Counted from the stretch's first letter, positions 7,777-62,663 are shown. The stretch is DNA of 64,000 nt from Gemmatimonadales bacterium (GCA_044221045.1 JBGAPX010000001.1:56608-120607); one strand, 5' to 3'. Notes: generated by a model not told the origin, from the letters alone. A program made the numbers and translations.

Positions 7777-7834
7777 CCTTCCCCCTTCCCTTTTCCCTCT
7801 TCCCCTTTCCCTCTTCCCGCTTCCCCTGTTCCCC
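7777..7834. repeat. heptamer array, C-rich strand up: (NNTTCCC)x7-8
   Basis: ccttccc ccttccc ttttccc tcttccc ctttccc tcttccc gcttccc; preceded by hairpin GGGGAACGGGGCC/GGCCCCTTCCCCC (7751-7785); between def stop and next ATG (7853). Confidence 0.9.
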
Positions 7835-7852
7835 ATCCCCACCCTGCCGCCG

Positions 7853-8290
7853 ATGCCTTCCCGTCCCCGCTACGCCCCGCACCCGAGTCTCGCCCGCATG
7901 CAGGGAGCGGAGGCCGATCCCGCCGCCTACCTCCGCGCGGCGCCGGGGATGGTCGACGCGATGTACGCCGCCCGCCCCGCCCTGCGGCCGCTCCACGACG
8001 CGCTCGAGGAGCTCGCGCTGGCACTCGGGCCCGACATCCGGCTCTGTCCCAGCCAGACGATCGTGCCGATCTACCGCAAGCACGTGATCGCGCAGATCAA
8101 GCCCGCGACGAAGACCCGGATCGACTTCGGGCTGGCGCTCGGCGCGCTCAAGGGCAAGGGCCGGCTGCTGGATACGGGCGGCTACGCGAAGAAGGACCGG
8201 ATCACCCACCGGATCGCGGTGGCGTCACTGGCGGACCTGGACGACGAACTGCGGGAGTGGCTGCGGCGGGCCTACGAGCTCAACGGCTGA
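7853..8290 (+). CDS. hypothetical protein (DUF5655/DUF4287-like)
   Basis: 145 aa ORF; segment IVPIYRKHVIAQIKPATKTRIDFGLAL..RITHRIAVASLADLDDELREWLRRAY recalls DUF5655 proteins; start uncertain (internal Met alternatives). Confidence 0.55.
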   Translation: MPSRPRYAPHPSLARMQGAEADPAAYLRAAPGMVDAMYAARPALRPLHDALEELALALGPDIRLCPSQTIVPIYRKHVIAQIKPATKTRIDFGLALGALKGKGRLLDTGGYAKKDRITHRIAVASLADLDDELREWLRRAYELNG

Positions 8291-8296
8291 GCGGGG

Positions 8297-8920
8297 TCAT
8301 GGTGCCGCGGCGCGGCGCACCACGCGGCCCCGGGCGTCCATCCGGTCGAGGTTGGCCTGGATGCGCTGCACGTAGTTGAGCGTCTCCTGGTGACGCCAGC
8401 CACGGACTTCAGGCGCCACCAGCGCGATGCTGGTCCACAGCGCCGGGTCGAGCGCGCGGGAGCGCGCCAGGGTGCGGGCCCGCAGGATGGGCACCCGGCC
8501 GGCGTTGTAGCTGGCGAACATGAAGTGCCGGTGGTCGTCCGCGCTCACCGAGTCGCCGAGCCACATGCGCCACAGCCGCCGGTCGTAGTAGATGCCGGCG
8601 GCGATGTTCCACTCGTCGTTGTCGATGGCGGTGAAGTCCGGGTTGCGCGATTGCACCTCGGTGAAGGTGCTCGGCATGAGCTGCATCACCCCGCGGGCGC
8701 CCACCCAGCTGGTGGCGGCGGGGTTGAGGTTGCTCTCGGTCATGCCCTGGGCCTTGAACAGGCGCCAGTCGAAGCCGATGCCGAAGAACCGCTTGCTGTA
8801 CTTGCGGAAGGTGGGGTCGTAGCGGTCGGTGACCGCCTGGGCGCGGAGCGGCAGCCCGAGGAGGAGCGGGAGCAGGGCGGGGAGGAGCCACCGCCCGAGG
8901 GCGCCGCGGAGCCGGGCCAT
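8297..8920 (-). CDS. lytic transglycosylase (SLT domain), secreted
   Basis: Internal start MARLRGALGRWLLPALLPLLLGLPLRAQA (signal) in ORF 8297..9172; catalytic region AQGMTESNLNP..GARGVMQLMPSTF..AGIYY..SYNAG. Confidence 0.85.
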   Translation of the reverse strand: MARLRGALGRWLLPALLPLLLGLPLRAQAVTDRYDPTFRKYSKRFFGIGFDWRLFKAQGMTESNLNPAATSWVGARGVMQLMPSTFTEVQSRNPDFTAIDNDEWNIAAGIYYDRRLWRMWLGDSVSADDHRHFMFASYNAGRVPILRARTLARSRALDPALWTSIALVAPEVRGWRHQETLNYVQRIQANLDRMDARGRVVRRAAAP

Positions 8921-9123
8921 CAGTTGAGCGCGCCGCCGATGATGAGCGCGATCGACACGAAGATCGCGGCGACGAAGATGGCCACCGCGACGTTCCCCTT
9001 GCGCAGCTCCTCCGCGAAATTCACCTCCGGGGTGAGCTTGTCGAAGGCGCGATACGATACGTACATCAGCACCACGCCCAGCGCGGCGTAGAGGAAGTTC
9101 AATCCGATGATGCTCCATTCCAT
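8920..9123 (-). CDS. small membrane protein, DUF350-like
   Basis: 67 aa from MEWSIIGLNFLYAALGVVLMYVSY..; two hydrophobic helices; ATGA overlap with SLT gene start; rest of ORF 8920..9846 is Arg/Gly/Pro-rich artefact. Confidence 0.6.
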   Translation of the reverse strand: MEWSIIGLNFLYAALGVVLMYVSYRAFDKLTPEVNFAEELRKGNVAVAIFVAAIFVSIALIIGGALN

Positions 9124-9198
9124 CGTGCCTCCGGGGCAGGTGGTGCAGGGCGGGTGGCCGGGATGCGTCCAATATGGCAACGGAACCGGCCGAGCGAC

Positions 9199-10439: not shown

Positions 10440-10442
10440 GCC

Positions 10443-10734: not shown

Positions 10735-12300
10735 ATGATCCTCCTCCAGGTCCCGCAGACCACGGTTGGCGCCCCGAGCCTGGTGGCCAAGGGGTTCTTC
10801 TTCCTCTTCCTGGCCACCACCCTCGGCATCACCTGGTGGGCCGCCCGCCGCACCCGCACCACCGAGCACTTCTACACCGCCGGCCGCACCATCACCGCCC
10901 GGCAGAACGGCGTCGCCCTCGCGGGCGACTACATGAGCGCGGCCTCCTTCCTGGGGATCGCGGGGCTGGTGTCGCTCACCGGCTTCGACGGCCTCATCTA
11001 CTCCACCGGCTGGCTGGTGGGGTGGCCGGTGGTGCTGTTCCTCATCGCCGAGCCGCTGCGGAACCTGGGCAAGTACACCTTCGCCGACGCCGTGACCGTC
11101 CGCTTCCGCCAGAAGCCGGTCCGCCTGGCCGCCGCGGTGGGCACGCTGGCCACCGTGACGCTCTACCTCATTGCCCAGATGGTCGGGGCCGGCGGCCTCA
11201 TCCGGCTCCTGTTCGGGCTGTCGTACGAGACGGCGGTGGTGGTGGTGGGCGCGGCGATGATCGCCTACGTGCTCTTCGGCGGCATGCTGGCCACCACCTG
11301 GGTGCAGATCGTCAAGGCGGGGCTGCTGCTCTCGGGGGCGGCGCTGCTGGCCCTCCTGGTGCTGGCCCGCTTCGACTTCAACCCCGCCCGGCTCTTCGCG
11401 GAGGCGAGCGCGCGCCAGGGCGCCGCGGTGCTCTCGCCAGGCAAGCTGGTGGCCAACCCGCTCGACGCCATCTCGCTCGGGCTGGCGCTGATGTTCGGCA
11501 CCGCGGGGCTGCCGCACATCCTGATGCGCTTCTACACCGTGCCCGACGCCCGCGCCGCGCGCGCCTCGGTGTTCTACGCCACCGGGATCATCGGCAGCTT
11601 CTACCTGCTGACCTTCGTGCTCGGCTTCGGCGCCATGGTGCTGGTGGGGCCTGACGCCATCGCGGCGGTGGACGCCGGCGGCAACATGGCGGCGCCGCTG
11701 CTGGCCGAGCTGCTGGGCGGCACCGCCTTCCTCGGGTTCATCGGGGCGGTGGCCTTCGCCACCATCCTGGCGGTGGTGGCGGGCCTCACGCTCTCCGGTG
11801 CCGCCGCGCTCTCCCACGACCTCTGGGTGAACGTGGTGAAGGGCGGCCAGGCCGACGCGCACGAGCAGCTGCGGGTGGCGCGGATCGCCACCCTGCTGCT
11901 GGGCCTCGTGGCGGTGGCGCTCGGCATCACCTTCAAGGGCCAGAACGTGGCCTTCATGGTGGGGCTGGCCTTCGCCATCGCGGCCAGCGGCAACTTCCCG
12001 GCGCTCATCCTCTCCATCTTCTGGCGCGGCGCCACCACCCGCGGCATCGTCACCGGCATGCTCACCGGCACCGGCGCCACCCTGCTGCTCATCGCCCTCT
12101 CGCCCACGGTGCAGGTGGACCTGCTGCACCACGCGGCGGCCTGGTTCCCGCTCAAGAACCCCGCGCTGGTGACCATGCCGCTAGGCTTCCTGTCGGCCAT
12201 CGTGGTCTCGCGCCTCTTCCCGGAGCCGGCCGCGGCGGAGGCGCATGCCCGGGCCCAGCGCCGCGCCGCCCTCGGCCAGGCGGAGGAGCCCGCGGCGTGA
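10735..12300 (+). CDS. actP: cation/acetate symporter ActP (sodium:solute symporter family), copy 1
   Basis: 521 aa; [39 protein letters not shown]. Confidence 0.9.
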
Positions 12301-13805
12301 CCGCGCAGCTCCTCTTCTTCGCGTTCCTCGCCATCACCCTCGGCATCACCTGGTGGGCCGCCCGGAAGACCCGCACCGCCGACCACTTCTACGCCGCCGG
12401 CCGCAGCATCACCGCCCTGCAGAACGGCTTCGCGCTGGCCGGCGACTACATGAGCGCCTCCTCGTTCCTCGGCATCTCGGGGCTGGTGGCGCTCTCCGGC
12501 TTCGACGGGCTCATCTACGCCGCCGGCGGGCTGGTGGGCTGGCCCATCGTGCTGTTCCTCATCGCCGAGCCGCTGCGCAACCTGGGCAAGTACACCTTTG
12601 CCGATGTGCTGGCCGCGCGGCTCCGGCAGGTGCCGGTGCGGCTGGCGGCCGCGGTCGGCACCCTGGCCACGGTGAGCCTCTACCTGATCGCGCAGATGGT
12701 CGGGGCGGGGGGGCTCATCCGGCTCCTGTTCGGGCTGCCGTACGAGGCGGCGGTGGGCATCGTGGGGGTGGCGATGATCGCCTACGTGCTCTTCGGCGGG
12801 ATGCTCGCCACCACCTGGGTGCAGATCGTCAAGGCGGCGCTGCTGCTGGCGGGGGCGCTGCTGCTCACCGGGCTGGTATTGGCGCAGGTCGGAGCCTCGC
12901 CGCTCCGGCTCTTCGCCGCGGCCGCAGCGCTGCAGGGGCTCGCCGTGCTCGCGCCGGGCAAGCTGGTGGCCAACCCGGTGGACGCCATCTCGCTCGGGCT
13001 GGCGCTCATGTTCGGCACGGCGGGGCTGCCGCACATCCTGATGCGCTTCTACACCGTCCCCGACGCGCGCGCCGCGCGGCGCAGCGTGTTCTTTGCCACC
13101 GGGCTCATCGGGCTGTTCTTCCTGCTCACGTTCGTGATCGGGTTCGGGGCCATGTTGCTGGTGGGGCCGGAGGCCATCCGCGCCGCCGATCCCGGCGGCA
13201 ACATGGCGGCGCCGCTGCTGGCCGAGCGGCTGGGGGGCACCGGGCTGCTGGGGTTCGTGGGGGCGGTGGCGTTCGCCACCATCCTGGCGGTGGTGGCGGG
13301 GCTCACGCTCTCCGGCGCGGCGGCGCTTTCCCACGACCTCTGGGTGCACGTGGTGCGGCGCGGCGTGGCCGACCCGGCGGAGGAGCTCCGCGTGGCGCGG
13401 GTGGCCACCCTGGCGCTCGGGGTGCTGGCGGTGGTGCTCGGCATCACGTTCAAGGGCCAGAACGTGGCGTTCATGGTGGGGCTCGCGTTCGCCATCGCGG
13501 CCAGCGGCAACTTCCCGGCGCTGATGCTCACGCTCTTCTGGCGGGGAGCCACCACGCGCGGCGCGGTGGCGGCCATGCTCACCGGCACGGCGGCGACGCT
13601 GCTGCTCATCTACCTCTCGCCCACCATCCAGGTGGACCTGCTGCACCGCGCCGCGGCGCCCTTCCCGCTCAAGAACCCCGCGATCGTCTCGCTGCCGCTC
13701 GGCTTCCTGGCGGGGGTCGTCGTGTCACGGCTGTGGCCGGAGCCAGCGGCGGCGGCGGCGTTCGAGGGGATGGAGCGGAGGGCGGCGGTGGGGGGGGACC
13801 GGTAG
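12297..13805 (+). CDS. actP: cation/acetate symporter ActP, tandem paralog (copy 2)
   Basis: 502 aa; collinear with copy 1 over its whole length with many identical blocks; 4-nt overlap with copy 1 stop. Confidence 0.9.
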
Positions 13806-13849
13806 GGAGGCTGGGCCGGAAGTTCGCGGGAGCGTAGTTCACTGGAGAG

Positions 13850-13884
13850 TTGTCGCGCGACCAGTCGCATCCGTCGCGCGACAA
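13850..13884. promoter_or_regulatory. perfect 12-bp inverted repeat TTGTCGCGCGAC-N11-GTCGCGCGACAA
   Basis: Read directly; 45 nt after actP2 stop and 130 nt before the RHS start; no T-tract, so either terminator-like hairpin or operator. Confidence 0.4.
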
Positions 13885-13899
13885 GGCTGCGACAAGGCC
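13878..13899. promoter_or_regulatory. 11-bp direct repeat GCGACAAGGCT GCGACAAGGCC
   Basis: Read directly; first copy overlaps the right arm of the 12-bp inverted repeat. Confidence 0.3.
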
Positions 13900-13916
13900 T
13901 TCTCCGGGACGGCGAC

Positions 13917-13934
13917 CAGGGCCGCAAGGCCCTG
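13917..13934 (+). other. stable hairpin CAGGGCC-GCAA-GGCCCTG (GNRA tetraloop)
   Basis: 7-bp GC-rich stem with GCAA loop in the actP2/RHS intergenic region. Confidence 0.4.
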
Positions 13935-14016
13935 TGGTGGCGGCGGATAGGCCTTGGGCCGCGTGTGGCACGCCGCATGACATAGCAGGGAGGCATCCCG
14001 ACTCTGGAGCCTCCCC

Positions 14017-19754: not shown

Positions 19755-19988
19755 TCGCCAATTGTCCGGTACCCATCGGGACTCCGTGCGGATCAATACG
19801 CGGCTCGCGGCGGCGCCACCGCCAGACGACGCTTAAGAGGAGTCCTTGGCGGGATCCGGCCCTTTGTCCGGAAACCCCGATGAACCCGCTACTAGTTTCG
19901 TCTGTCGTACGGCTTCAGCAGAGTACGTCCGCACATCTACCAGCGAGGAACCACTCCGTCCGGGCAATCACTTGGGAGGTGGGCCAGA

Positions 19989-27257: not shown

Positions 27258-27304
27258 GCTGCCTCCCGCCTCAATCCTAGTGCGGTGGTCGGGAAGGGGC
27301 TACG

Positions 27305-27751
27305 GGTTGGGGGATTGGGCGGTTAGGCGGGTAGGCGGTTGGGAGGTACTGAGGGCCTTTGGGAGCGGCGCAGCCGCGACCCGGGCCCGAGGGAGAGGGC
27401 GATTAGGCGCGACTCCCGGCCCCGGGAGCGTAGCGGCCGCGACCCGGGCCCGCGGGAGAGGGCGATTGGGCGCGACCGCCCCGGGGAGCGGCGGAGCTCC
27501 TGATCAGTCTCGCGGGAGTCTCTTGGGGCGCCTCCCGGGCGCTGAATATCCACTCCGGAGCAACGAACCGCCCAACCGCCGAACCGTCGGCGCACGCACT
27601 CGCGGAAAATCCGCCGGCGCGGCGAATCGGCCGCGGAGGCCCCGGGAAAAGCCGCGCGGCTCCTCTGGCGGGAGTCCCTGGGGGCGTTCCCGGGGTGCTG
27701 AAAACATTCCCGGAGGCCCGAACCGCCCAACCGACGAACCGCCCAACCGTC
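27305..27751. repeat. complex non-coding repeat region: octamer array + 2.3 tandem copies of a 60-63-nt core unit + two ~80-nt direct repeats ending in CCGCCCAA units
   Basis: (GGTTGGGG GATTGGGC GGTTAGGC GGGTAGGC GGTTGGGA) 27305-27344; GGGAGCG..GCGACCCGGGCCCG.GGGAGAGGGCGATT.GGCG at 27361, 27424, 27484; GGGAGTC.CT.GGGGCG..CCCGGG.GCTGAA..A...CCGGAG...GAACCGCCCAACCG at 27511-27587 and 27667-27751. Confidence 0.9.
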
Positions 27752-28935: not shown

Positions 28936-28950
28936 GCACCCTCCCTTCAC

Positions 28951-29054
28951 GCCGAGCCGCCGAGCCGCCGAGTCGCCGAGCCGCCGAGCCGCCGAGTCGC
29001 CGAGTCGCCGAGTCGCCGAGCCGCCGAGCCGCCGAGCCGCCGAGCCGCCGAGCT
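28951..29054. repeat. octamer array (GCCGAGYC)x13
   Basis: 13 contiguous 8-nt units (9x GCCGAGCC/GCCGAGCT, 4x GCCGAGTC); last unit ends on the TGA of the matrixin gene; followed by one CCGCCCAA unit. Confidence 0.95.
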
Positions 29055-32228: not shown

Positions 32229-32323
32229 GGGAAGCGGGAAGCGCGAAGGACGTGTTGGCCCACCGCGGGCTTCCACGTCCTTCCCTATTCCCGCTTCCCG
32301 TTTCCCTCTTCCCGCTTCCCCCC
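32229..32323. repeat. inverted heptamer arrays forming a long hairpin between convergent genes (bidirectional terminator candidate)
   Basis: GGGAAGCGGGAAGCGCGAAGGACGTG (32229-32254) pairs with CACGTCCTTCCCTATTCCCGCTTCCC (32274-32299), then GTTTCCC TCTTCCC GCTTCCC; 6 nt after MMPL stop, 8 nt before pilin stop. Confidence 0.85.
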
Positions 32324-35528: not shown

Positions 35529-35580
35529 GGGGGGAATGTGCCGCGCCGACGCCGGAGGGGGTAGGGCGGGGGGGAGACGA

Positions 35581-35631
35581 CGGGAAACGGGAAACGGGAA
35601 GCGGGAAGCGGAACGACGGGGCCTGCGCCCC
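35581..35631. repeat. heptamer array (CGGGAAA x2, CGGGAAG x2, CGGAACG) plus GGGGC-CTGC-GCCCC hairpin
   Basis: Read directly; between GWxTD gene stop (35671) and polA start (35528); preceded by G-rich GGAGGGGGTAGGGCGGGGGGGAG. Confidence 0.85.
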
Positions 35632-47293: not shown

Positions 47294-47429
47294 GGGGGAG
47301 AAGGAGAGAAAAGGGAAACGGGAAGAGGGAAACGGGAAGGGGGAACTGCTCGCCCAATCGCCCAGCCGCCGAGCCGCCGAGCCGCCGAGCCGCCGAGCCG
47401 CCGAGCCGCCGAGCCGCCGAGCCGCCTAC
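47294..47429. repeat. composite array: ~8 heptamers (GGGAARN) then 10 octamers (TCGCCCAA TCGCCCAG (CCGCCGAG)x7 CCGCCTAC)
   Basis: Fills the whole gap between arginase stop (TAG 47426-47428, inside last unit) and the ATG of the downstream membrane protein (47293). Confidence 0.95.
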
Positions 47430-48348: not shown

Positions 48349-48438
48349 GGCGGCTCGGCGGCTCGGCGACTCGGCGGCTCGGACTCCGGTCGGCCGGTCG
48401 GGAAGGCCGAGCCGACCAGCCGTCCAGCCGCCGAGCCG
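48349..48438. repeat. inverted octamer arrays (GGCGGCTC x4-5 versus CCGAGCCG-type) forming an imperfect hairpin
   Basis: GGCGGCTC GGCGGCTC GGCGACTC GGCGGCTC GGACTCCG ... GGCCGAGCCGACCAGCCGTCCAGCCGCCGAGCCG; ends 5 nt before dnaN stop. Confidence 0.85.
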
Positions 48439-48443
48439 TCAGA

Positions 48444-51759: not shown

Positions 51760-52070
51760 TGCTCGGCGGCTCGGCGGCTCGGCGACTCGGCGGCTCGGCG
51801 GATCGGCACCTCTTTCCCCGGCCCACCACGCCCCTCGGCTGGCTGCAGGCGCCGCTCACCTGGCTCAGCATCCTCCTCATCCGTCTCTACCAGCTCGTCA
51901 TCTCCCCGGGCCTCCCCTCGAGCTGCCGCTTTGCGCCCAGCTGTTCGGCGTACACGCTCGAGGCGGTGCAGCGCCACGGTGCCCTCCGGGGCATCTGGCT
52001 CGGCGCCCGCCGGCTCGATCGCGCCATCAGCCATGCTCGAGGCGGCCAGTTCCCTGACCCCGACGCATAG
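51759..52070 (+). CDS. yidD: membrane protein insertion efficiency factor YidD, with octamer array in codons 2-17
   Basis: ATG overlaps rnpA stop (TGATG); LIRLYQLVISPGLPSSCRFAPSCSAYTLEAVQRHGALRG; N-terminal LGGSAARRLGGSADRH is encoded by the array. Confidence 0.75.
   Translation: MLGGSAARRLGGSADRHLFPRPTTPLGWLQAPLTWLSILLIRLYQLVISPGLPSSCRFAPSCSAYTLEAVQRHGALRGIWLGARRLDRAISHARGGQFPDPDA
51761..51808. repeat. octamer array (GCTCGGCG x3, ACTCGGCG, GCTCGGCG, GATCGGCA) inside the yidD 5' end
   Basis: Six contiguous 8-nt units = 48 nt = 16 codons. Confidence 0.9.
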
Positions 52071-52175
52071 GCACTCATGGACCGCCGTGTGATCTGGGCG
52101 ATCGGCCTGATGATGATCATCGCCATCGCCCCCACCTTCTTCCTCAAGCCGCCGGCCAAGCCGGTGGTGTAGAAA

Positions 52176-52238
52176 CCGCCGATTCGGCGGCTCAGGCGGC
52201 TCGGTGACTCGACGGCTCGGCGGCTCGGCGACTCGGCC
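52176..52238. repeat. octamer array (7 degenerate GCTCGGCG-type units) starting with palindrome CCGCCGATTCGGCGG, inside yidC right after the TAG
   Basis: TTCGGCGG CTCAGGCG GCTCGGTG ACTCGACG GCTCGGCG GCTCGGCG ACTCGGCC. Confidence 0.85.
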
Positions 52239-52517: not shown

Positions 52518-52549
52518 GCTCGGCGGCTCGGCGGCTCGGCGGCTCGAGG
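52518..52549. repeat. octamer array (GCTCGGCG x3, GCTCGAGG) inside the yidC periplasmic domain
   Basis: Encodes VLGGSAARRLEA in the yidC frame. Confidence 0.85.
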
Positions 52550-53780
52550 CGAAGGGGCAGCCCCAGGACCTGGTGCTCACCGGCGGCCGCGGCGGCGCGC
52601 AGGTGGAGCTCACCTACACCTTCCGCCCCGACGACTACCTGATCGGCGTGCGCGGCCGGGTCACCGGCCTCGGGCCGGTGGGCGGGCACCTGCTGATCGA
52701 CATGGGCAGCGGCTTCCGCCAGACCGAGGCCGACAGCGCCGCCAACTACTACGAGTTCGGCCTGGTCACCAAGACCGACGAGTCGAAGCTCACCAAGTTC
52801 TCCTCGCTCAAGCCGCTGGAGCGGCGCACCCTGGAGGGGCCGCTGGAGTGGGCGGCGGTCAAGGCCAAGTACTTCGTGGCCGCGGTGCTGGTGGTGGATT
52901 CCGGCGCGGCCCCGCTCTCCGGCGCCACGGCACAGGCGCTGCCGGCCGCCAAGAAGCCGACCCACGCCGCGGTGACCTTCGGGATGCCCATCGCCGCCGC
53001 CGGCGACTTCCAGTACCGCTTCTACCTGGGCCCGATGGAGTACCCGCGGCTCAAGGCGATCGGTCACGGCTTCTACGACATCAATCCCTACGGCTGGCCC
53101 GGCTTCCGCACCATGATCCGCCCGATCGCGGTGGGCGCGCGGTGGCTGCTGGTGTCCATGCACGAGAACCTGGGCCTGGCCTACGGCATCGTGCTGGTGC
53201 TGTTCGGGGTGCTGATCCGGATCGTGCTGTGGCCGCTCAACCAGAAGGGCATGCGCGCCAGCATCCGGATGCAGGGCCTGCAGCCCGAGATGCAGCGGAT
53301 CCAGGACAAGTACAAGGAAGACCCCGCGCGGATGCAGAAGGAAGTGATGGAGCTGTACAAGCGCGAGGGCGTGAACCCCTTCAGCGGCTGCTGGCCGCTG
53401 CTGCTGCCCTGGCCCATCCTGCTGGCGCTGTTCTTCGTGCTGTCGAACTCGATCGAGCTGCGCGGGCAGGCGTTCCTGTGGCTCCCCGACCTGGCGCTCA
53501 AGGACCCGCTCTACGTCATCCCGGTGGTGATGGGGCTGTCGATGTTCGCGGTGAACAAGGTCGGCATGATGGGCATGCCGCCCAACCCGCAGTCGAAGAT
53601 GATGCTGTACTTCCTGCCGGTGATGATGACGGTGATGTTCCTGAACTTCGCGTCGGGACTCAACCTGTACTACGCGGTGCAGAACCTCGTCAGCATCCCG
53701 CAGCAGTGGTACCTGGCCAAGGAGCGGCTCAAGGCCAAGCCGCCGGAAGTCGGCACGAAGAAGGGCTGACGGCGCGCCGA

Positions 53781-53863
53781 CGGGAAACGGAAAACGGGAA
53801 GCGGGAAGGCACGGAGCTCACCTCGCCTTCCCGCTTCCCTTTTCCCGTTTCCCGGTAGTTTTT
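53781..53863 (+). terminator. intrinsic terminator built from inverted heptamer arrays: 30-nt arms (28/30 paired) + T5
   Basis: CGGGAAACGGAAAACGGGAAGCGGGAAGGC (53781-53810), 14-nt loop, GCCTTCCCGCTTCCCTTTTCCCGTTTCCCG (53825-53854), then GTAGTTTTT; 11 nt after yidC stop. Confidence 0.7.
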
Positions 53864-53878
53864 CCTTCTCCTACGACC

Positions 53879-55188
53879 ATGCTCTCGGACCCCATCGTCG
53901 CCCTCGCCACCCCGCCCGGCCGCTCCGCGCTCGCGGTGATCCGGCTCTCGGGCGCGGGGGCGTTCGGGATCGCGGCGCGGGTCATCCCCGGCTTCCGCGC
54001 CGACCCGCCGCGCACCGCGCATTACGCCGCCTTCCGCGACGCCGCCGGCCAGCTGATCGACCGGGGGATCTACCTGGTGTTCGCCGGCCCGCGCTCCGAG
54101 ACCGGCGAGGACGTGGTGGAGTTCCAGTGCCACGGCGGGCTCGCGGTGCCGGCGCGGCTGGTGGCGGCGATCGAGGCCGCCGGCGCGCGCCCCGCCCACC
54201 CGGGGGAGTTCACCCGCCGCGCGGTGATGCACGGGAAGCTCGACCTGCTCCAGGCCGAGGCGCTGGGCGACCTCATCGATGCCGAGGCGCCGGCGCAGGC
54301 CCGCGCCGCGCTGGTGCAGCTGGAGGGCGGGCTCTCCCGCCGGATCGCGGCGCTCCCCGCGCCGGGCTGGTGGAGCTGCTGGCGCTGCTCGCGTACGACG
54401 TGGACTTCCCCGAGGAAGACGACGGCCCCGTTGCCCGCGACCGGATCGAGGCCGCCCGCGCCACCGTGCTCGCCGGGGTGGAGCAGCTGCTCGGCACCGC
54501 GCCGCTCGCCGACCGGGTGCGCCGCGGCGCGCTGGTGGTGCTGGCCGGCCCGCCCAACGCCGGCAAGTCGTCGCTGTTCAACGCCCTGCTCGGGAGCGAA
54601 CGGGCGCTGGTCACCGAGATCCCCGGCACCACCCGCGACGCCATCGAGGCCCACGTGGAGTTCCACGGCTGGCCCATCCGCCTGGTGGATACCGCCGGCC
54701 TCGGCGAGGCCACCGACCGGCTCGACGCGCTGGGCCAGGCGATGGGCCGGCGATTCGTGGAGGGGGCGGATCTGGTGGTGGAGCTGGGCGGCCTGGCGGT
54801 TCGGCGGCTCGGCGGTTCGGAGGCTGCACCGCTGCTGGTCCGCGCCAAGGCCGACCTGGGTGGCGAGGGGGAGGGGCTCCCGGTGTCGGCGGTGACGGGG
54901 CAGGGGCTCGCGGAGCTCAAGCGCGCCATCGTCGCGCGGCTGTTCCAGTCCGGCGCCGGCTTCGCCGACCTGGAGCCGGCGCTCACCCGCGAGCGGCACC
55001 GGGTGGCGCTCAGTACCGCGCGCGACGCCCTCGCGGCCACCGCCACCCAACTCGGCCCCCGTGGCGAGGCGGTGCTCGCCGCACATCACGTGCAGGAGGC
55101 GGTGCGCGCACTCGATGGCCTGGTGGGAGTGGTGGATGTGGAGGAGGTGCTGGACCGGGTGTTTGCGAGTTTTTGCGTGGGGAAGTAG
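53879..55188 (+). pseudogene. mnmE: tRNA modification GTPase MnmE, single frameshift in the C4 run at 54355-54358 (probable sequence error)
   Basis: N-terminal half in ORF 53879..54895 (MLSDPIVALATPPGRSALAVIRLSG, GKLDLLQAEALGDLI), C-terminal half in ORF 54127..55188 (GPPNAGKSSLFNALLG, DTAGL, ..FCVGK*); total 1310 nt = 437 codons minus 1 nt. Confidence 0.9.
54787..54826. repeat. octamer array (GGCGGCCT GGCGGTTC GGCGGCTC GGCGGTTC GGAGGCTG) inside the mnmE G-domain
   Basis: Encodes ELGGLAVRRLGGSEA between the ADLVV and LLVRAKADL strands. Confidence 0.85.
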
Positions 55189-55198: not shown

Positions 55199-55323
55199 CG
55201 GGAAGCGGGAAACGGGAAGCGGGAAGCGGAACCGCCGATCCCCGCGGCTTTCGCCGGCGCCCGGGAACCCGAGCCGTCTTGCTGAGTAGCGCCCTCTTCC
55301 CGCTTCCCGCTTCCCTTTTCCCG
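55199..55323. repeat. inverted heptamer arrays separated by a 61-nt spacer
   Basis: CGGGAAG CGGGAAA CGGGAAG CGGGAAG CGGAACC (55199-55233) ... CTCTTCC CGCTTCC CGCTTCC CTTTTCC CG (55294-55323); 10 nt after mnmE stop, 9 nt before the next ATG. Confidence 0.9.
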
Positions 55324-55332
55324 TTGGTGCCC

Positions 55333-56124: not shown

Positions 56125-56130
56125 ATTGCC

Positions 56131-56218
56131 GGGAAGCGGGAAGCGGGAAGCGGGAAGCGGGAAGCGGGAAGCGGGAAGCGGGAGGCGGCGGACTCCGCTT
56201 CCCGTTTCCCGTTTCCCG
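56131..56218. repeat. (GGGAAGC)x7 + GGGAGGC, short loop, then (GCTTCCC GTTTCCC GTTTCCC)
   Basis: Seven perfect units 56131-56179; partial complementary arm 56194-56218; 6 nt after the MOSC stop. Confidence 0.95.
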
Positions 56219-56253
56219 TCTAGTCTTCACCCAATCTCACCCCAGCGACATCC

Positions 56254-57051
56254 ATGACCCCCACCCTCCTCGGCATCCCGTGGGATGCGAGCTCGTCGTT
56301 CCAGCGCGGGCCGGCGCAGGCGCCGGCTGCCGTCCGCGCCGCCCTCCGCTCCGATTCCAGCAACGGCTGGAACGAGGAGCTGGTGGACGCCCGCGCGCTG
56401 CTCCAGGACGCCGGCGACCTGGCGCTCCCCGCCGACGGCCCGCTGCCGCTCGAGGCGATCACCGCCGGCGCCCGCGCGCTGCTCGACGCCGGCGCGACGC
56501 CGGTCTTCCTGGGCGGCGACCATTCGGTGACCTGGCCGCTGGTCCGCGCGGTACGGCCCCGCCACGAGCGGCTCACGATCTTCCACCTCGACGCCCACCC
56601 CGACCTCTACGACGAACTCGACGGCCGGCGCGACAGTCACGCCTGCCCCTTCGCGCGGATCCTCGAGGAGGGCGGCGCCAATCACCTGGTGCAGGCGGGG
56701 ATCCGCACCCTCAACGCGCACCAGCGCGACCAGGCCCGCCGCTTCGGGGTGGAGATGGTGCAGATGCGCCAGGGACTCGAGGCGATGGTCACCGCCGCCC
56801 GCCGCCTGGCCGGGCCGGTCTACCTGTCCGTCGACCTCGACGCGCTCGACCCGGCCTTCGTCCCCGGGATCAGTCACCCCGAACCGGGCGGGCTCAGCAC
56901 CCGCGAGCTGCTCACGATCCTGCAGGCGATCCCCAAGGGCCGGATCGTGGCGGCCGACGTGGTGGAACTCAACCCCGCCAACGACCTGCGCGACCTCACG
57001 GCCAGGGTGGCGGCGAAGGTGGTTGGGGAGATCGTGGGGAGGTTGGGGTAG
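56254..57051 (+). CDS. speB: agmatinase-like ureohydrolase
   Basis: 265 aa; GGDHSVTWP, HLDAHPDLY, SVDLDALDPAFVPGISHPEPGGL. Confidence 0.85.
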   Translation: MTPTLLGIPWDASSSFQRGPAQAPAAVRAALRSDSSNGWNEELVDARALLQDAGDLALPADGPLPLEAITAGARALLDAGATPVFLGGDHSVTWPLVRAVRPRHERLTIFHLDAHPDLYDELDGRRDSHACPFARILEEGGANHLVQAGIRTLNAHQRDQARRFGVEMVQMRQGLEAMVTAARRLAGPVYLSVDLDALDPAFVPGISHPEPGGLSTRELLTILQAIPKGRIVAADVVELNPANDLRDLTARVAAKVVGEIVGRLG

Positions 57052-57058
57052 GAACAGC

Positions 57059-57323
57059 GGGAAGCGGGAAGCGGGAAGCGGGAAGCGGGAAGCGGGAAAC
57101 GGGAAACGGGAAACGGGAAACGGGAAACGGGAAGGGGGAAAGGGGGAAAGGGAAGCGGGAAGGGGAACCCGCGAGAGCCAGGGGAGTACATCAAACCGCC
57201 CAACCGCCACTCCCTCGCGCCCGGGTCGCCGCTACGCGGCTCCCGAAGGGCGCTCGGTCGCCGCCCTACCGCCCTACCGCCCTACCGCCTTACCGCCTTA
57301 CCGCCCTACCGCCTACCGCCCCT
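57059..57323. repeat. largest composite element: (GGGAAGC)5 (GGGAAAC)5 + ~5 degenerate heptamers, conserved core, (CCGCCCTA/CCGCCTTA)x8
   Basis: Heptamers 57059-57170; core ..CCGCCCAACCGCCACTCCCTCGCGCCCGGGTCGCCGCTACGCGGCTCCCGAAGGGCGCTCGGTCGCCG 57195-57260; octamers 57261-57323; fills the gap between convergent speB and CDGSH genes. Confidence 0.95.
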
Positions 57324-58562: not shown

Positions 58563-58693
58563 GGCGGTTGGGCGGTTGGGCGGTTGGGCGGTTGGGCGGT
58601 TGGGCGATTGGGCGACTGGGCGACTGGACGGCGCAGATGCCTTGGCCTCGCCTTCCCGCTTCCCTCTTCCCTTTTCCCTTTTCCCTCTTCCCG
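58563..58693. repeat. composite array: (GGCGGTTG)x5 GGCGATTG (GGCGACTG)x2, spacer, (NNCTTCC)x6
   Basis: Octamers 58563-58629, heptamers 58650-58693; ends flush with the TGA (58694) of the BTAD regulator gene. Confidence 0.95.
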
Positions 58694-61600
58694 TCAGTTC
58701 CCCCCCAGCTGCGCGACCCGGATCCTCGCCCGCTCCACCCGCGCCCGGTAGATCGGGTCGGCATCGCTCCAGTTCTTGAGCACCTGGCGGTAGCGGGTGA
58801 CGGCGCTGTCGCGCTCGCCGGCGGCGTCCCAGGCCAGGGCGCCGAGCTCGAGGAGCTCGGTGGTGGTGGCGTAGGTCTGGGAGGCGTCGAGTCCGCCGCG
58901 GCGGGCGGCGTCGGCCCAGTAGGCGGCCTCGCGGGGGCGGTTGAGGCGCAGCAGGACCTTGGCCAGCTCGATGTTGGTGCGGGTGTAGCCGCTGGTCGGG
59001 CTCCAGATGGCCTGACGGAATTCGGCCGCGGCCTGCTCCAGCTGGCCCCGCGCCGCGTAGAGCAGGCCGCGCACGTGATGGTGGGCCCGGCCGTCGCGGC
59101 CGTAGCTGTTCCGCTGGCCCCAGACCTCGATGCTGTCGGCGATGCGTGGCAGGGGCGCGGTGTCGCCGGCGGCGGCGAGGGCGGTGCTCCGGAGCAGCTG
59201 GGTCCACACCAGGTTGCGGGCCACCTGCGAGCGGGTGGTGTCCCGGGGGCTGCGCGAGACGGAATCGAACGTCGCCGCCGCGCGGCGGAAGTCGCCCAGC
59301 TCGTACCAGGCCTGCGCCTCGAAGAGGGCGCTGTAGGGCGCGGCGCCTCGGGGGAAGGGATCCTCGAGGCCCCGGAGCCGGTGGGCCCACTCCAGGCCCT
59401 CGCGCGGCTTCCCCTGCATGCGATGGCTGATGCTCAGCCACTTGTAGCCCTCGCCGGGGAGCTTGCCGTGCGCCAGCTGGGTGTAGTAGCTGTCCGCCGC
59501 GGCGAAGTCGCCCATGCGGAGCCACACCTGCACCCGGAAGCCGTCGCGCACCAGGCCGGGGTCGCGGGCGATGACGACCTGGTCGGCGGTGAGCGCCTCG
59601 CGGTACCGGCCCGCGAGCATGAGCACCCAGCTGACCTGCCCCGCCGGCCCCGCCGCCTGCGGCTGGGCCCGCTGCCACTCCTCCGCGGTGCGGAGCGCGG
59701 CCGGCAGCGAGTCCATGTAGGCGTAGGTGCTGACGAGCATGAGGTAGGCGATGCAGGCATGGCAGCGCACCGGCGGGCCATCCTTGCGCTCGCTGGCCCG
59801 GAGCGAGAGCGAGTCCATCCGGATGACCTTCCGCAGCGGCTCGACCGCGCCCAGGAAGTCCCCGCTCGAGTTCCGCGCCGCCGCGAGCCAGGTGTAGCCC
59901 TCCGGCTCGGTGGGGTAGCGCACGGTGAGGCTCTCCGCCACCGCGATCCGGTTGGGCGCGTCCACCGCCGCGCTCCACCCCGCCAGGATGGTGAGCCGCT
60001 CCCGTTCCGAGGCCCGCGCCGAGAGCCGCACCGCCCGCTCCAGGCCGCGGATGAGGTTGACGTCGTTGAAGCTCCCCTGCGTCGTCGCCAGCCAGTAGGC
60101 GGCCATCGCGAAGGTGGAGTCCTCCTGCAAGGCCTGCTCCATCAGGCGCGCGCCCGCCTCGCCGTCGCCGCGGAAGAGGGCGCGCAGCCCTTCCTCATAG
60201 AACCGGTACGCCACCAGGGAGCGGGTGGTGACCTCGGCGATGCTGCCATTGGCGGCGCTGTCGATCCCCTCGGTGATGCTGCGCCGCGCCTCCTCCACCA
60301 GCCCGAAGAGGTCGCCCGCCTCCGCCGAGTAGCTCTCGGTCACGCCGCCGGTGGCGAGGTTGGTGCGGGTGAGGTCGAGCCGCAGCCGGCCGTCGGGCCG
60401 GCGGTAGAGGGCGCCGTCGATCAGCTCGGTGGCACCGGCGGCGCGCGCGGCGCGCACGGCGCTCGCCGCGGAATCGCCGGGGCCGCCCGATTGCGCCATG
60501 AGCTCGTACATCCGCGCGGTGCTGATGACCTGCAGCGCGCGGCTGCGCGCCAGGTCGGTGGCGAGCATGTCGCCGAGCGGGCGCGCCAGGCCCTCGCCGC
60601 TCCGGGTGTAGTCCTTGATCATCCCCACCGCCACCACCGGCGCCGCGGCGCCCGCGCCGAGCTCGTCCCGGAACACCCGCACCCGCATCACGCCCGCCAC
60701 CAGCAGGCCGAGGACGAGGCCGATGGCGATGCCGAGGCGGGTGGAGGTTCGGCGGAGAAACGGCTTGCGGGGCGGCAGGGCCGCCAGCGGCTCGGCGGCT
60801 CGGCGACTCGGCGGCTCGACCTGCGGACGGGGGCGGGCGTACTCGTCGGTGTAGCCGGAGATGAGCTTGCGGCCCGAGGGCTCCGGCACCGGCGCCGGCC
60901 GGGTGACGGCGGGGGTGCCGGGGATGGTGGAGATGGGGACGGAGGCGAGCGGCTCGGCGGCTCGGCGACTCGGCGGCTCGGCGGCTTGGCGGCTCGGCGG
61001 CTCGACCGTTTCCCGCACTCTCTCGCCCCCGGGTCGCGCTGACGCGCTCCCGAAGGGGGCTCGGTCGCCGCTTCCCGCTTCCCGCAGTTGATCTGCCAGC
61101 CGCTTCACCTCCGGGTCCGGCTCCAGCTCCAGTTCCTGCCGCAGCAGCATCTCGTACACCCGGTAGTGCTGCAGGGCGGCGGCGCGGTCGCCGACGGCGG
61201 CGAGGGCCTGCATCAGGCCGAGTGCGCTCCGGGCGTTGAGCGGGTCGGCGTTGGCGAGGAGGCGCCAGTAGCCGAGGGCGGTGCGGGGATCGCCGGCGGA
61301 GGAGGTGTCGCGGGCCAGCCGCTCCACGGCGGCGATGTAGTCGTGCGCCAGCGCGGCGCGTTCGCTCTCGGCCCAGCGCTCGAACTCGGGGGCCTCGTCG
61401 AGGTAGATGCCGTCGAGGAAGGGGCCCTTGTAGAGCGCGACCGCGTCGGCGAGGCGCTGCTCCTTGAGCGCCTGGCGGAAGCGGGCCAGGTCGCTGTCGC
61501 AGAGGTCGGGGTTGAGCCGGAGGTCGGTGGTGCCGAGCACCAGGTCCTCGGCGCCCAGGTCGCGGCGCAGGGCGTAGACCGTCTGGGCGAGGTTCTTCCG

Positions 61601-61792
61601 GGCCCGCTCCAGGTCGGACTCGGGCCACAGGAGGCTGAGCAGCTTCTCGCGCGAGAGGCCGCGCTCGCCGGCGGCGGCGAGGAGGGCCAGCAGCGCCAGG
61701 CGGCGGCGCTGGGCGCCGGCGCCCGCGGCCGGGGCGCCGCCCCGCTGGACGCCCAGGCCGCCGAAGGTGACGAGGAGGAGCGGTGGGCTCAT
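58694..61792 (-). CDS. BTAD/SARP-like winged-helix transcriptional regulator with TM segment and TolB-N-like/TPR sensor region (1032 aa)
   Basis: N-terminus RRLALLALLAAAGERGLSREKLLSLLWPE..; BTAD block ALYKGPFLDGIYLDEAPEFERWAESERAAL..ALQHYRVYEMLLRQELELEPD; TM LGIAIGLVLGLLVAGV; TPR-like C-terminus. Confidence 0.85.
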   Translation of the reverse strand: MSPPLLLVTFGGLGVQRGGAPAAGAGAQRRRLALLALLAAAGERGLSREKLLSLLWPESDLERARKNLAQTVYALRRDLGAEDLVLGTTDLRLNPDLCDSDLARFRQALKEQRLADAVALYKGPFLDGIYLDEAPEFERWAESERAALAHDYIAAVERLARDTSSAGDPRTALGYWRLLANADPLNARSALGLMQALAAVGDRAAALQHYRVYEMLLRQELELEPDPEVKRLADQLREAGSGDRAPFGSASARPGGERVRETVEPPSRQAAEPPSRRAAEPLASVPISTIPGTPAVTRPAPVPEPSGRKLISGYTDEYARPRPQVEPPSRRAAEPLAALPPRKPFLRRTSTRLGIAIGLVLGLLVAGVMRVRVFRDELGAGAAAPVVAVGMIKDYTRSGEGLARPLGDMLATDLARSRALQVISTARMYELMAQSGGPGDSAASAVRAARAAGATELIDGALYRRPDGRLRLDLTRTNLATGGVTESYSAEAGDLFGLVEEARRSITEGIDSAANGSIAEVTTRSLVAYRFYEEGLRALFRGDGEAGARLMEQALQEDSTFAMAAYWLATTQGSFNDVNLIRGLERAVRLSARASERERLTILAGWSAAVDAPNRIAVAESLTVRYPTEPEGYTWLAAARNSSGDFLGAVEPLRKVIRMDSLSLRASERKDGPPVRCHACIAYLMLVSTYAYMDSLPAALRTAEEWQRAQPQAAGPAGQVSWVLMLAGRYREALTADQVVIARDPGLVRDGFRVQVWLRMGDFAAADSYYTQLAHGKLPGEGYKWLSISHRMQGKPREGLEWAHRLRGLEDPFPRGAAPYSALFEAQAWYELGDFRRAAATFDSVSRSPRDTTRSQVARNLVWTQLLRSTALAAAGDTAPLPRIADSIEVWGQRNSYGRDGRAHHHVRGLLYAARGQLEQAAAEFRQAIWSPTSGYTRTNIELAKVLLRLNRPREAAYWADAARRGGLDASQTYATTTELLELGALAWDAAGERDSAVTRYRQVLKNWSDADPIYRARVERARIRVAQLGGN
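60787..60818. repeat. octamer array (GCGGCTCG x2, GCGACTCG, GCGGCTCG) inside the BTAD regulator linker
   Basis: Encodes VEPPSRRAAEPLAAL on the minus strand. Confidence 0.85.
60949..61084. repeat. composite element inside the BTAD regulator CDS: (GCGGCTCG)x7, conserved core, (CTTCCCG)x2
   Basis: Core ACCGTTTCCCGCACTCTCTCGCCCCCGGGTCGCGCTGACGCGCTCCCGAAGGGGGCTCGGTCGCCG 61005-61070; translated as EAGSGDRAPFGSASARPGGERVRETVEPPSRQAAEPPSRRAAEPLA. Confidence 0.9.
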
Positions 61793-62445
61793 GCGGCGCC
61801 GGCCAGCGCCCGCCGGGCGCGCTCGAGGTTCCGCCGGGCGGCGGCCTCGAAGCGGGCCCGGAACGGCGCCGTGCTATAGATGAAAGGGCGGGAGAGGAAC
61901 CGCTCCAGCACCGCGTCGCGGCCGGCGCGGAAATCCGGCGCCGGCACCCCGGCGTATTCGGCCCGGATCTGCCGCTCGTACTCATCGTAGCGCGCCGGCA
62001 CCGCGCCGAGGATGGCGAGGTCGATGTCCACCAGGAGCGCCTCCGCCGGGGTCTCGGGGGGCAGGTCGTGCCGGGTGGCGAGGATCAGCCGCTCGATCCG
62101 GCGCACGATGTCGGGTGCCGCGCCGGCTCCACGCAACACCTCAGAGGCCCACGTCGCGCTGGCCTGCTCGTTGTCGGAGCGACGGGTGTCGTAGACCGCA
62201 TCGTGGAACCAGAGCGCCACCGCCACCTCCCCGCCTGACGTTCCCGCCGCCGCCGCCAGCTCCCCCGCCTCTTCGAGCCGCTCGAAACACTCCCCCAGGT
62301 GCTGGAGGGAGTGATAGGCGCGGTCGGGCGCACGGTACGCCGCGATCACCTGGTCCCTGACGGCGGGCGCGGGGGCCGGGAGGCCGAGGGCGGCCCAACT
62401 GCGGTCCCATCGGGACGCCGCGTCGAAAGGCTTGCCGGGCAACAC
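61789..62445 (-). CDS. HD-superfamily predicted metal-dependent phosphohydrolase (COG4339-like)
   Basis: 218 aa; YHSLQHLGECF, ALWFHDAVYD, LVDIDLAILG, IRAEYAGVP; ATGA overlap with the BTAD gene start. Confidence 0.7.
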   Translation of the reverse strand: MLPGKPFDAASRWDRSWAALGLPAPAPAVRDQVIAAYRAPDRAYHSLQHLGECFERLEEAGELAAAAGTSGGEVAVALWFHDAVYDTRRSDNEQASATWASEVLRGAGAAPDIVRRIERLILATRHDLPPETPAEALLVDIDLAILGAVPARYDEYERQIRAEYAGVPAPDFRAGRDAVLERFLSRPFIYSTAPFRARFEAAARRNLERARRALAGAA

Positions 62446-62452
62446 GTTGCGT

Positions 62453-62507
62453 CAGGTGATCGGCAGGTGATCGCAGGGTGAAGGGGAATTCATGGGCAGG
62501 TGAACGC
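62453..62507. promoter_or_regulatory. helical-turn-phased direct repeats CAGGTGATCGG / CAGGTGATCG / CAGGGTGAAGG ... CAGGTGAACGC
   Basis: Starts at 62453, 62464, 62474 and 62497; directly upstream of the HD/BTAD operon start (62445). Confidence 0.4.
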
Positions 62508-62543
62508 CGGGCCTATTGTAGCCCGCGTAGCAGATGGGAGCAA

Positions 62544-62663
62544 GCGGCGGCTCGGCGGCTCGGCGGCTCGGCGGTTCGGGGGTTCGGGGGTTCGGGGGTG
62601 CGGCGGTGCGGTCTCGAACCGCCCAACCGCCTAACCGCCCAACCGCCGAACCGCCCAACCGCC
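62544..62663. repeat. inverted octamer arrays: (TCGGCGGC/TCGGGGGT/GCGGCGGT)x9 facing (GAACCGCC/CAACCGCC/TAACCGCC)x6
   Basis: GGCGGTTC-type units are the reverse complement of GAACCGCC units, giving a long imperfect hairpin; 36 nt upstream of a lipoprotein gene with AAAGGAGA RBS. Confidence 0.9.

Follow-up and report, generated by a model that had tools for sequence, protein, structure and literature searches.

What are the short tandem repeats that crowd the gene boundaries of a Gemmatimonadales genome, and by what process did they arise and change? The question is raised by a stretch of 64,000 nucleotides from a Gemmatimonadales bacterium (GCA_044221045.1 JBGAPX010000001.1:56608-120607), referred to here as the window and numbered from its first letter, in which a sequence-only reading had listed 19 loci between positions 7,777 and 62,663 with arrays of a heptamer (GGGAARC) or of an octamer built on CCGCC plus three variable bases, taking them for one window-wide family docked onto gene boundaries. 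The arrays are two families of dispersed short-unit tandem repeats (variable-number tandem repeats, VNTRs), GGGAARC and CCGCCNNN, and they gain and lose whole units, as replication slippage predicts. They are real and well supported, and they constitute a further case of a known kind of bacterial repeat and not a new kind of system.

With respect to the existence of the arrays, Tandem Repeats Finder detected repeats of period 7 and period 8 at all 19 loci, and a regular-expression scan was concordant. The units follow one another head to tail in 3-16 copies with 80-100% matches, the locus at 27305 being weak with 2.9 copies, and the octamer occurs across the window in the variants CCGCCGAG, CCGCCCAA and CCGCCYTA. 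Taking dinucleotide-preserving shuffles of the window as the measure of chance, the heptamer GGGAARCGGGAARC with at most one mismatch gave 46 two-unit matches as against 0.14 expected, and the three-unit octamer pattern (CCGCC-N3) CCGCCNNNCCGCCNNNCCGCC gave 28 as against 0.02. As such shuffles yield essentially no arrays of this kind, the base composition of the window (72% G + C) does not explain them, and the family first noticed in the sequence is thus borne out at every locus and far beyond chance. The two stretches said to be free of arrays, 7.9-27.3 kb and 35.7-47.2 kb, are indeed without heptamer or octamer arrays according to Tandem Repeats Finder. The list of 19 loci is nevertheless an undercount, most loci consisting of two arrays, e.g., 32229 and 32280, 53780 and 53827, 55199 and 55292, 56130 and 56195, 48349 and 48410, 62545 and 62617, 47304 and 47359, 57056 and 57261, and 58563 and 58652. 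In Rfam, searched at the gathering threshold and at E <= 1, the modules gave only meaningless sub-threshold matches to microRNA-precursor hairpins and no family matches the arrays; the sole family above threshold in the window is bacterial RNase P RNA class A (42759-43162, 262 bits). A CRISPR array, which has repeats of 23-50 nt and unique spacers, had rightly been set aside, the units being contiguous 7-8-mers without spacers.

Most of the intergenic loci are not single arrays but inverted pairs or polar modules, and the earlier statement that terminal inverted repeats were lacking was therefore mistaken, as the inverted pairs form long hairpins. Heptamers are paired in this way at 32229/32280, 53780/53827, 55199/55292 and 56130/56195, and octamers at 48349/48410 and 62545/62617; these six paired modules fold at -56 to -87 kcal/mol with z values of -4.1 to -7.1 relative to shuffles. 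Three additional modules combine a heptamer with an octamer array (47304/47359, 57056/57261 and 58563/58652). The arrays and modules of the window are as follows.

7751..7840, plus strand: module past the stop of def (7731), comprising a short G-rich arm with hairpin at 7751-7786, then C-rich heptamers
7775-7840, plus strand: the C-rich heptamer array CTTCCCN of this module, about 8-9 units; the module's fold is weak (z -1.8)
27318..27340, plus strand: 2.9 units of the G-rich octamer GGCGGTTA, at the left edge of a 524-nt spacer (27257-27781)
27356..27470, minus strand: two tandem core elements of 45-55 nt in reverse orientation, the core being that at 57205 and 61016
27566-27586 and 27716-27749, plus strand: C-rich octamer arrays AACCGCCC, each after a second repeated unit of ~50 nt
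28950..29053, minus strand: 13 octamer units, CTCGGCGG when read along the minus-strand genes, between the M10 peptidase stop (29054) and the beta-lactamase ATG (28936)
32229..32320, plus strand: hairpin module after the MMPL stop (32222), (GGGAAGC)2.9, central stem GAAGGACGTG/CACGTCCTTC, (CTTCCCG)5.9; -56.1 kcal/mol, z -6.7
35580..35611, plus strand: heptamer array ACGGGAA with 4.6 units, flanked by the stop of the GWxTD gene (35671) and the start of polA (35528), adjoining a small GC hairpin (z -1.3)
47304..47426, plus strand: hetero-module, G-rich heptamers (47304-47345), then C-rich octamers CCGCCGAG, 8.5 units (47359-47426)
48349..48440, plus strand: octamer inverted pair, GGCGGCTC (4.2 units) and AGCCGNCC (3.9 units), a hairpin between the dnaN stop and the start of an arginase gene; -66.4 kcal/mol, z -4.5
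51761..51807, plus strand: octamer array GCTCGGCG, 5.9 units, within the yidD coding sequence
52184..52237, plus strand: octamer array, 6.6 units, in the YidC linker from transmembrane helix 1 to the periplasmic domain
52518..52546, plus strand: octamer array, 3.6 perfect units in frame (VLGGSAARRLEA), in the YidC periplasmic domain
53780..53854, plus strand: heptamer hairpin after the yidC stop, 4 + 4 units with GAGCTC in the loop, then TTTTT; -56.1 kcal/mol, z -7.1
54787..54824, plus strand: in-frame octamer array of about 5 units in mnmE, located in the G domain between motifs G3 and G4
55199..55323, plus strand: heptamer inverted pair, 4.4 + 4.6 units with a 67-nt spacer, at the mnmE/MOSC junction; -75.1 kcal/mol, z -4.1
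56130..56219, plus strand: heptamer hairpin, GGGAAGC (8.4 units), then GYTTCCC (3.6 units), at the junction of the MOSC gene and arginase-2; -62.9 kcal/mol, z -5.9
57056..57321, plus strand: hetero-module between convergent genes, 16 units of (GGGAARC) (57056-57167), core (57205-57258), 7.8 units of (CCGCCYTA) (57261-57321)
58563..58692, plus strand: hetero-module, GGCGGTTG (7.5 units), then (CTTCCCN) (5.9 units), ending 1 nt from the BTAD-gene stop
60787..61085, minus strand: coding arrays of the BTAD regulator, octamers at 60787-60818 and 60949-61004, core at 61016-61071, two heptamers at 61068-61085
62545..62664, plus strand: octamer inverted pair, CGGCGGTT (8.4 units), then AACCGCCC (6 units), a hairpin in a divergent spacer; -87.2 kcal/mol, z -4.7

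In the modules of the window, hetero-pairs included, a G-rich array comes first and a C-rich array second without exception (11/11), the inverted heptamer pairs contributing four G-first and no C-first cases. The same polarity is seen elsewhere. A scan for (GGGAARC)4 in one genome per species returned at least 120 loci, and among the matches listed about 39/120 belong to Gemmatimonadota, the other groups being Acidobacteriota, Thermoanaerobaculia, Hydrogenophilales, Xanthomonadales, Verrucomicrobiota and others. Still among the matches listed, the inverted heptamer pairs of other phyla comprise 28 G-first and 0 C-first cases, many of the pairs start 2-8 nt past a stop, and of 13 unpaired arrays lying no more than 12 nt past a stop, 12 have the G-rich sequence in the sense strand; C-sense single arrays exist farther from stops in these genomes.

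Apart from the units themselves, some hairpins enclose a unique central stem, as GAAGGACGTG/CACGTCCTTC at 32229, which is kept in two relatives (L205 and L206; L numbers denote the compared contigs) despite differing arm lengths, and a GAGCTC-centred loop is common to modules at two junctions. A core of 45-55 nt, CTCCCTCGSGCCCGGGTCGCSGCTRCGCSGCTCCCGAAGG, lies beside octamers at three loci, namely at 57205, at 61016 and twice at 27356-27470 (27356/27425).

The claim that the arrays are docked onto gene boundaries is overstated, and six loci (51761, 52184, 52518, 54787, 60787 and 60949) lie inside coding sequence. The distances to stops and starts had been read correctly: arrays start 2-11 nt past the stops at 32222, 53769, 55188, 56124 and 57051, one array is flush with the stop at 58694, and at 29054, 47426 and 57313 the stop falls within the last unit or touches it, the octamer unit that closes 47359-47426 carrying the stop of an arginase-family gene. 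At least one gene tail borders 12 of the 13 array-bearing spacers of the window. Array-bearing spacers measure 110-260 nt, as against 0-60 nt for junctions in an array-free relative (L133), and the apparent docking is largely due to modules filling spacers that are only this long in that relative.

By comparing contigs of the same population it is evident that copy number differs between strains, and mostly by whole units. The population contigs are MEGAHIT contigs of one ENA study, 97.5-99.4% identical. In a first set of six such metagenome contigs, compared over 52.4-64 kb, 14 of the 18 distinct indels fall in arrays and all 14 are whole units (7, 14 or 42 nt in heptamers, 8 or 16 nt in octamers). 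In a second set (L207 and L213-L220, 25.8-57 kb), array 47359 changes by -16 and -32 nt, 53780 by +7 nt and 56130 by -14 and -21 nt; differences other than whole units are -33 nt at 28950 in L207, which has a divergent allele, and +44 nt in the heptamers at 47333 in L218, and indels are also present in non-array spacers, e.g., at 55257. Among strains, the G arm of 56130 thus has 8.4, 7.4, 6.4 or 5.4 units, 57056 has 16, 14 or 10, 58563 has 5.5 to 9.5, 47359 has 8.5, 6.5 or 4.5, the G arm of 53780 has one extra unit in some strains, and 62545 shows changes of -8 and -16 nt. Array 28950 counts about 9 units in L207 and consists of other octamer variants in L205 and L206. The two arms of one hairpin vary independently.

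The octamers inside genes behave differently from this, as no length change of a coding array was seen within the population. They are in frame at six loci, once in yidD, twice in yidC, once in mnmE and twice in the BTAD regulator, and gene calls on strain contigs include them (YidC of 563, YidD of 101 and MnmE of 435 amino acids). None of the six reading frames of the unit CTCGGCGG contains a stop, and eight codons, reading LGGSAARR or, on the other strand, EPPSRRAA, are made by three units; octamer variants containing TA occur only between genes, and at 57313 the last codons of the CDGSH gene and its stop come from a unit of the CCGCCYTA type. The yidD array (51761) follows directly on an ATG (51759) that overlaps the rnpA stop and has the same length in six strain contigs. 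In YidC the linker array at 52184 is invariant in length among strains, and that at 52518 has imperfect versions of equal length in L024 and L129; the MnmE array at 54787 is 39 nt (13 codons) longer, in frame, in L024. In the BTAD regulator the arrays at 60787 and 60949 lie in a linker, encoding EPPSRRAA repeats, and two haplotypes coexist in one population at 61020-61095: 76 nt of core plus two heptamers in the window, L200 and L204, and a 97-nt octamer array in L199 and L201-L203, a difference of +21 nt that keeps the frame (1032 vs 1039 amino acids). Taken together, whole-unit changes and frame-constrained coding arrays are the mark left by slippage under selection to keep the reading frame.

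The window comes from an uncultured, soil-type member of the Gemmatimonadales, and the genomes closest to it are Gemmatimonadales metagenome-assembled genomes. STL-GEM4 (L024 and L206, contig JAXLXY010000004.1) is colinear at 89-94% identity, GCA_964426055.1 (L219) is 99.5% identical over 9 kb, and L133, about 75% identical, is colinear between 47.4 and 58.5 kb and has no array in 20.8 kb. In L133 the MOSC gene and arginase-2 meet in the stop/start overlap TGAATG, and the mnmE/MOSC and yidC/mnmE junctions measure about 20 and about 35 nt. In relatives of about 90% identity (L024, L129, L130, L205 and L206) the same junctions differ in copy number, in unit family and in the presence of a module. 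Array 56130 has 2 units in L024 and 10 in L129; the dnaN/arginase junction has an octamer pair in the window and heptamers in L129; the M10/beta-lactamase junction carries CCGCCGAG, AATCGCCC or core fragments; and the module 58563-58692 occurs in the window's population only, being absent from L024, L129 and L130. In two of these, L024 and L130, a single GCTTCCC stands beside the BTAD stop, where the window has 6 units, which is consistent with expansion from a seed. The hairpin at 53780 is almost identical in the ~90% relatives; the 55199 junction in L024 has about 13 + 5 units around a short GAGCTC loop. Control loci chosen by protein similarity, about 330 kb including DNA of 72-73% GC, yielded only about four that bear arrays. 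On these comparisons of sequence the arrays are a lineage-specific bloom of fast turnover in one Gemmatimonadales lineage.

The reading that we consider probable is that of slippage-driven VNTR families in the style of the cyanobacterial STRR, which bloomed in one Gemmatimonadales lineage and are built around hairpins just downstream of genes. Whole units are gained and lost, modules lie directly past stops and fill once-tiny spacers, and the stop-free octamer CTCGGCGG is also tolerated in frame in protein linkers, with its length held constant there. The birth of arrays would be local, each growing out of a single seed unit or out of sequence flanking a hairpin already present downstream of a gene. 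Composite pieces of core and octamers might also have spread by ectopic recombination or copying. Paired modules may act as U-tract-poor terminators or as hairpins protecting RNA 3' ends, their copy number being nearly neutral. Such a terminating or RNA-stabilising role, which we infer, would fit the polarity, as the purine arm lies 5' and the U/C arm 3', like the A-tract and U-tract of bidirectional terminators. Consensus scans of 46-64 kb also stayed at chance level for canonical hairpin-plus-U terminators (6 found, 4.7 expected) and for promoters.

Several observations weigh against this reading. Slippage explains the length of arrays, not the recurrence of the same two units at about 20 loci nor the swap of unit families at one junction. 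The arms of the hetero-modules are not complementary and yet are G-first, for which a hairpin role does not account; nor do the two arms differ in length in any consistent way with respect to the upstream gene, a trend to a longer 3' arm being absent. While a GC-rich stem-loop does lie shortly past the stop, as in an intrinsic terminator, the U tract expected directly 3' of the stem is missing: the consensus scan placed no such terminator at the modules, and TTTTT was found only after 53780. The hairpin at 62545, between 61789-62445(-) and a lipoprotein gene starting at 62698, stands in a divergent spacer, where a terminator is unexpected. In viral contigs three control heptamers of similar composition formed 12, 8 and 6 four-unit arrays as compared to 8 for GGGAARC; as the controls are about as frequent, occurrence across phyla may be ordinary microsatellite background.

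A wider version of the hairpin idea would regard the GGGAARC/GYTTCCC arrays as expandable-stem, U-tract-independent bidirectional terminators or RNA 3'-end hairpins of a class shared across phyla, which the Gemmatimonadales lineage recruited, together with an analogous octamer, at nearly every junction. If this were true, the G-first polarity (28:0 among the matches listed, 4:0 here) and the start of arrays no more than 12 nt past stops would reflect a function at the RNA level; alternatively, the polarity might be the footprint of a templated repeat-propagating process. We regard this class as unlikely.

To be taken seriously to the same extent, though likewise improbable, is the proposal that the modules are non-autonomous mobile elements, similar to REP/BIME or to miniature inverted-repeat transposable elements (MITEs), moved by a transposase encoded elsewhere, e.g., a RAYT of the IS200/IS605 type, with slippage as a secondary process. 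It would readily account for the same units at about 20 loci, for the presence or absence of modules at single junctions (58563-58692 being confined to the window's population), for different families at one junction in close relatives, for the two BTAD haplotypes in one population and for the GAGCTC loop common to two junctions. Also the core travelling with octamers to three loci, one of them intragenic, and a hairpin architecture resembling paired REP elements (REPINs) would be expected. However, filled and empty junctions differ without visible target-site duplications or fixed ends, which speaks against a MITE, and 'empty' sites hold single seed units. In addition, the coding arrays are as long as the imperfect orthologous segments in the ~90% relatives, so that the two differ by substitutions and not by insertion, and no transposase or Y1 domain was found by Pfam in the part of the window's open reading frames that was scanned.

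Contingency loci, in which copy number would switch or tune the expression of neighbours or shift the frame of host genes by phase variation, are quite improbable. Unit lengths that are not multiples of three, the high copy-number polymorphism within the population and the position of several arrays, which lie between a stop and the start that follows or, at 62545, in a region of divergent promoters, are what such loci would have. Nevertheless, the coding arrays never vary by a frame-breaking length in the strains sampled, most of the variable arrays are downstream of genes, and the genes concerned are housekeeping genes (yidC, yidD, mnmE, dnaN, polA) and not surface or restriction genes; changes of length that shift the frame or the promoter spacing of variably expressed genes, by which simple-sequence contingency loci are recognised, were thus not found.

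No more credit can be given to a role of the tracts at the level of DNA, as formers of G-quadruplexes (G4), as Chi-like signals or as arrays binding proteins of the nucleoid or the origin region. GAAGCGG and AGCGG are the Chi sequences of Staphylococcus aureus and Bacillus subtilis; both are contained in the heptamer repeat, and four or more units of GGGAAGC fit G3N4, a canonical G4 motif. Each of the eight unpaired octamer arrays has its G-rich sequence on the plus strand if it lies right of dnaA and on the minus strand if it lies left, which is the orientation expected of a leading-strand signal if oriC lies at dnaA, but in six of the eight the orientation also follows gene direction. Arrays are also denser at 47-63 kb, where they occupy about 8 of 9 spacers of at least 40 nt as compared to about 5 of 17 elsewhere in the window (Fisher's exact test, p = 0.011, spacer counts being approximate). 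In turn, the two spacers flanking dnaA, the candidate oriC, hold no array, and the G arm of the paired modules is predicted to be locked in a duplex or hairpin. The clustering around the origin put forward in the sequence-only reading was overstated: in other genomes arrays are spread over several contigs, with 1.6 Mb between them in one case.

Finally, neither ordinary low complexity of a high-GC genome nor an assembly artefact deserves further consideration, for although private indel lesions (in dnaA, yidC, yidD, mnmE and def) betray an imperfect source assembly and viral contigs contain control heptamers about as often as GGGAARC, the former is refuted by the shuffles and by control loci of 72-73% GC that have no arrays, and the latter by the recurrence of the arrays at identical positions in short-read contigs and metagenome-assembled genomes of independent origin.

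The remark that the repeats match no known family is thus correct with regard to Rfam but not with regard to their kind, which has close precedents in the 7-bp STRR and the 8-bp HOOF-Prints. STRR of filamentous cyanobacteria are 7-bp tandem units at many intergenic loci, e.g., hupS/hupL, that form hairpins; their function is still unknown, and an effect on transcript stability was suggested (PMC2670836). The arrays of the window likewise are 7-bp tandem units at many intergenic loci and form hairpins, while their host is a member of the Gemmatimonadota and their unit is GGGAARC, and they differ further in being combined with a second family, of octamers, and with a unique core, in their strict G-first order and in the octamers that lie in frame in essential genes. 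To our knowledge, GGGAARC is not a cyanobacterial STRR unit. The hypervariable octameric oligonucleotide fingerprints (HOOF-Prints) of Brucella consist of one 8-bp unit in tandem at at least eight loci, with 8-bp steps between strains (PMC1183211). Here, too, an 8-bp unit is arrayed at several loci and changes in copy number by 8-bp steps; unit and taxon are different, and the arrays comprise unit variants, form inverted pairs and are partly coding.

Other known elements resemble the arrays in part. REP/BIME and REPINs of Proteobacteria lie mostly downstream of genes, form inverted-pair hairpins and mosaics of repeat and linker, vary between strains and have been proposed to stabilise mRNA or to terminate transcription, the REP units being imperfect palindromes of about 20-40 nt tied to RAYT transposases. 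The modules described here share the location mostly 3' of genes, the inverted-pair hairpins, the mosaic structure and the strain variability, whereas their repeated entity is 7 or 8 nt long, palindromy arises only from paired arrays, and six octamer loci are in frame inside genes, so that the arrays are not strictly extragenic. U-tract-poor and bidirectional intrinsic terminators occur in high-GC bacteria, and similar to these the modules place a GC-rich hairpin with a purine 5' flank and a pyrimidine or U 3' flank a few nt past a stop, between convergent as well as co-directional genes. They differ from intrinsic terminators in the missing U tract (except at 53780), in stems of 30-45 pairs built of repeats and in the one module in a divergent spacer, and the likeness is a structural one. 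Rickettsia palindromic elements (RPE) are single palindromic elements of about 100-150 nt that lie in frame in conserved genes; the octamers also reside in frame in conserved protein genes without destroying them, but as tandem arrays, and array-free relatives have orthologous segments of about the same length.

Full-text literature searches found no description of these repeats in Gemmatimonadota. The arrays extend dispersed hairpin-forming short tandem repeats, so far mainly the cyanobacterial STRR and typing markers of pathogens, to this poorly studied phylum, and public metagenomes alone reveal that they mutate fast enough to separate strains within a species. Through such repeats, compact junctions of 0-60 nt can grow to 110-260 nt, and essential genes can even receive linker residues and stop codons from them. 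The strict G-first polarity, a concrete and testable clue to the function or origin of the repeats, and the in-frame colonisation of essential genes are worth following up. For practical purposes, the arrays are strain markers as well as trouble spots for assembly and for the calling of gene starts and stops.

As to the genes concerned, Pfam assigns the dense cluster of arrays to the dnaN-dnaA-rpmH-rnpA-yidD-yidC-mnmE neighbourhood, followed after mnmE by a MOSC gene, an arginase-family gene, CDGSH and DUF2268 genes and the BTAD regulator. Several of these genes are damaged in the window. Between 49733 and 50823, dnaA has about 40 indels of 1-5 nt relative to the intact dnaA (460-480 amino acids) of L129, L133 and L213-L219, while the flanking dnaN and rpmH-rnpA are clean, and the lesions probably reflect poor polishing of the assembly here and not a pseudogene. 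Lesions at 52022-52046, 52171-52194 and about 52411 affect yidD (-1, -7) and yidC (an in-frame TAG at 52171 with +2, +1, then -2), mnmE has +2 nt at 54355, and def is frameshifted near 7395, between its N- and C-terminal halves. The lesions of dnaA, yidD, yidC, mnmE and def are private to the window, the genes being intact in the strain contigs that cover these sites, and such frame-breaking changes look like local errors of assembly or polishing. Exact copy numbers in the window are therefore to be read with caution; the arrays themselves are independently confirmed.

Some further observations concern the surroundings of the arrays. Two core copies (27361-27477), a repeated ~50-nt unit and three octamer arrays together form a mosaic in the 524-nt spacer that separates the FeS-assembly gene from the beta-lactamase gene, 27508-27586 matching 27664-27741 at a distance of 156 nt. 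Between 54500 and 55000 the window is 98-99.6% identical to L129, otherwise about 90%, while L199, a contig 98% identical overall, differs at about 15 positions in the mnmE octamer segment; this suggests a recombination tract between lineages. In L130 (~91% identity) an extra gene of about 2.2 kb (positions 646-2827) lies between the MOSC and arginase-2 orthologues, with no array there; in the window this junction is occupied by the 56130 hairpin.

The first of the array-free stretches coincides in part with 12.8-20.7 kb, a segment lacking in relatives. These ~8 kb (12783-20729) are absent from the 92-94% relatives L205 and L206, where the patatin gene directly follows the SSF gene; they contain the end of a second SSF transporter paralogue and a 1685-amino-acid RHS-repeat protein (14017-19074), have 61.5% GC at 18-20 kb, and look like a genomic island, one without arrays. 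The two sodium:solute symporter (SSF) genes are tandem paralogues (10796-12243 and 12313-13760), 83.6% identical over 1450 nt.

At the starts of mnmE, the MOSC gene and arginase-2 the 5' sequence is pyrimidine-rich (53855-53880, 55323-55336 and 56220-56256) with no match to a Shine-Dalgarno sequence; the beta-lactamase and lipoprotein genes have clear GGAGG-like sites. The signal peptide of the lipoprotein gene starting at 62698 contains a 9-nt in-frame repeat, GATGGCGAC, in 3.8 copies (62717-62750), of which strains L199 and L200 have one unit fewer.

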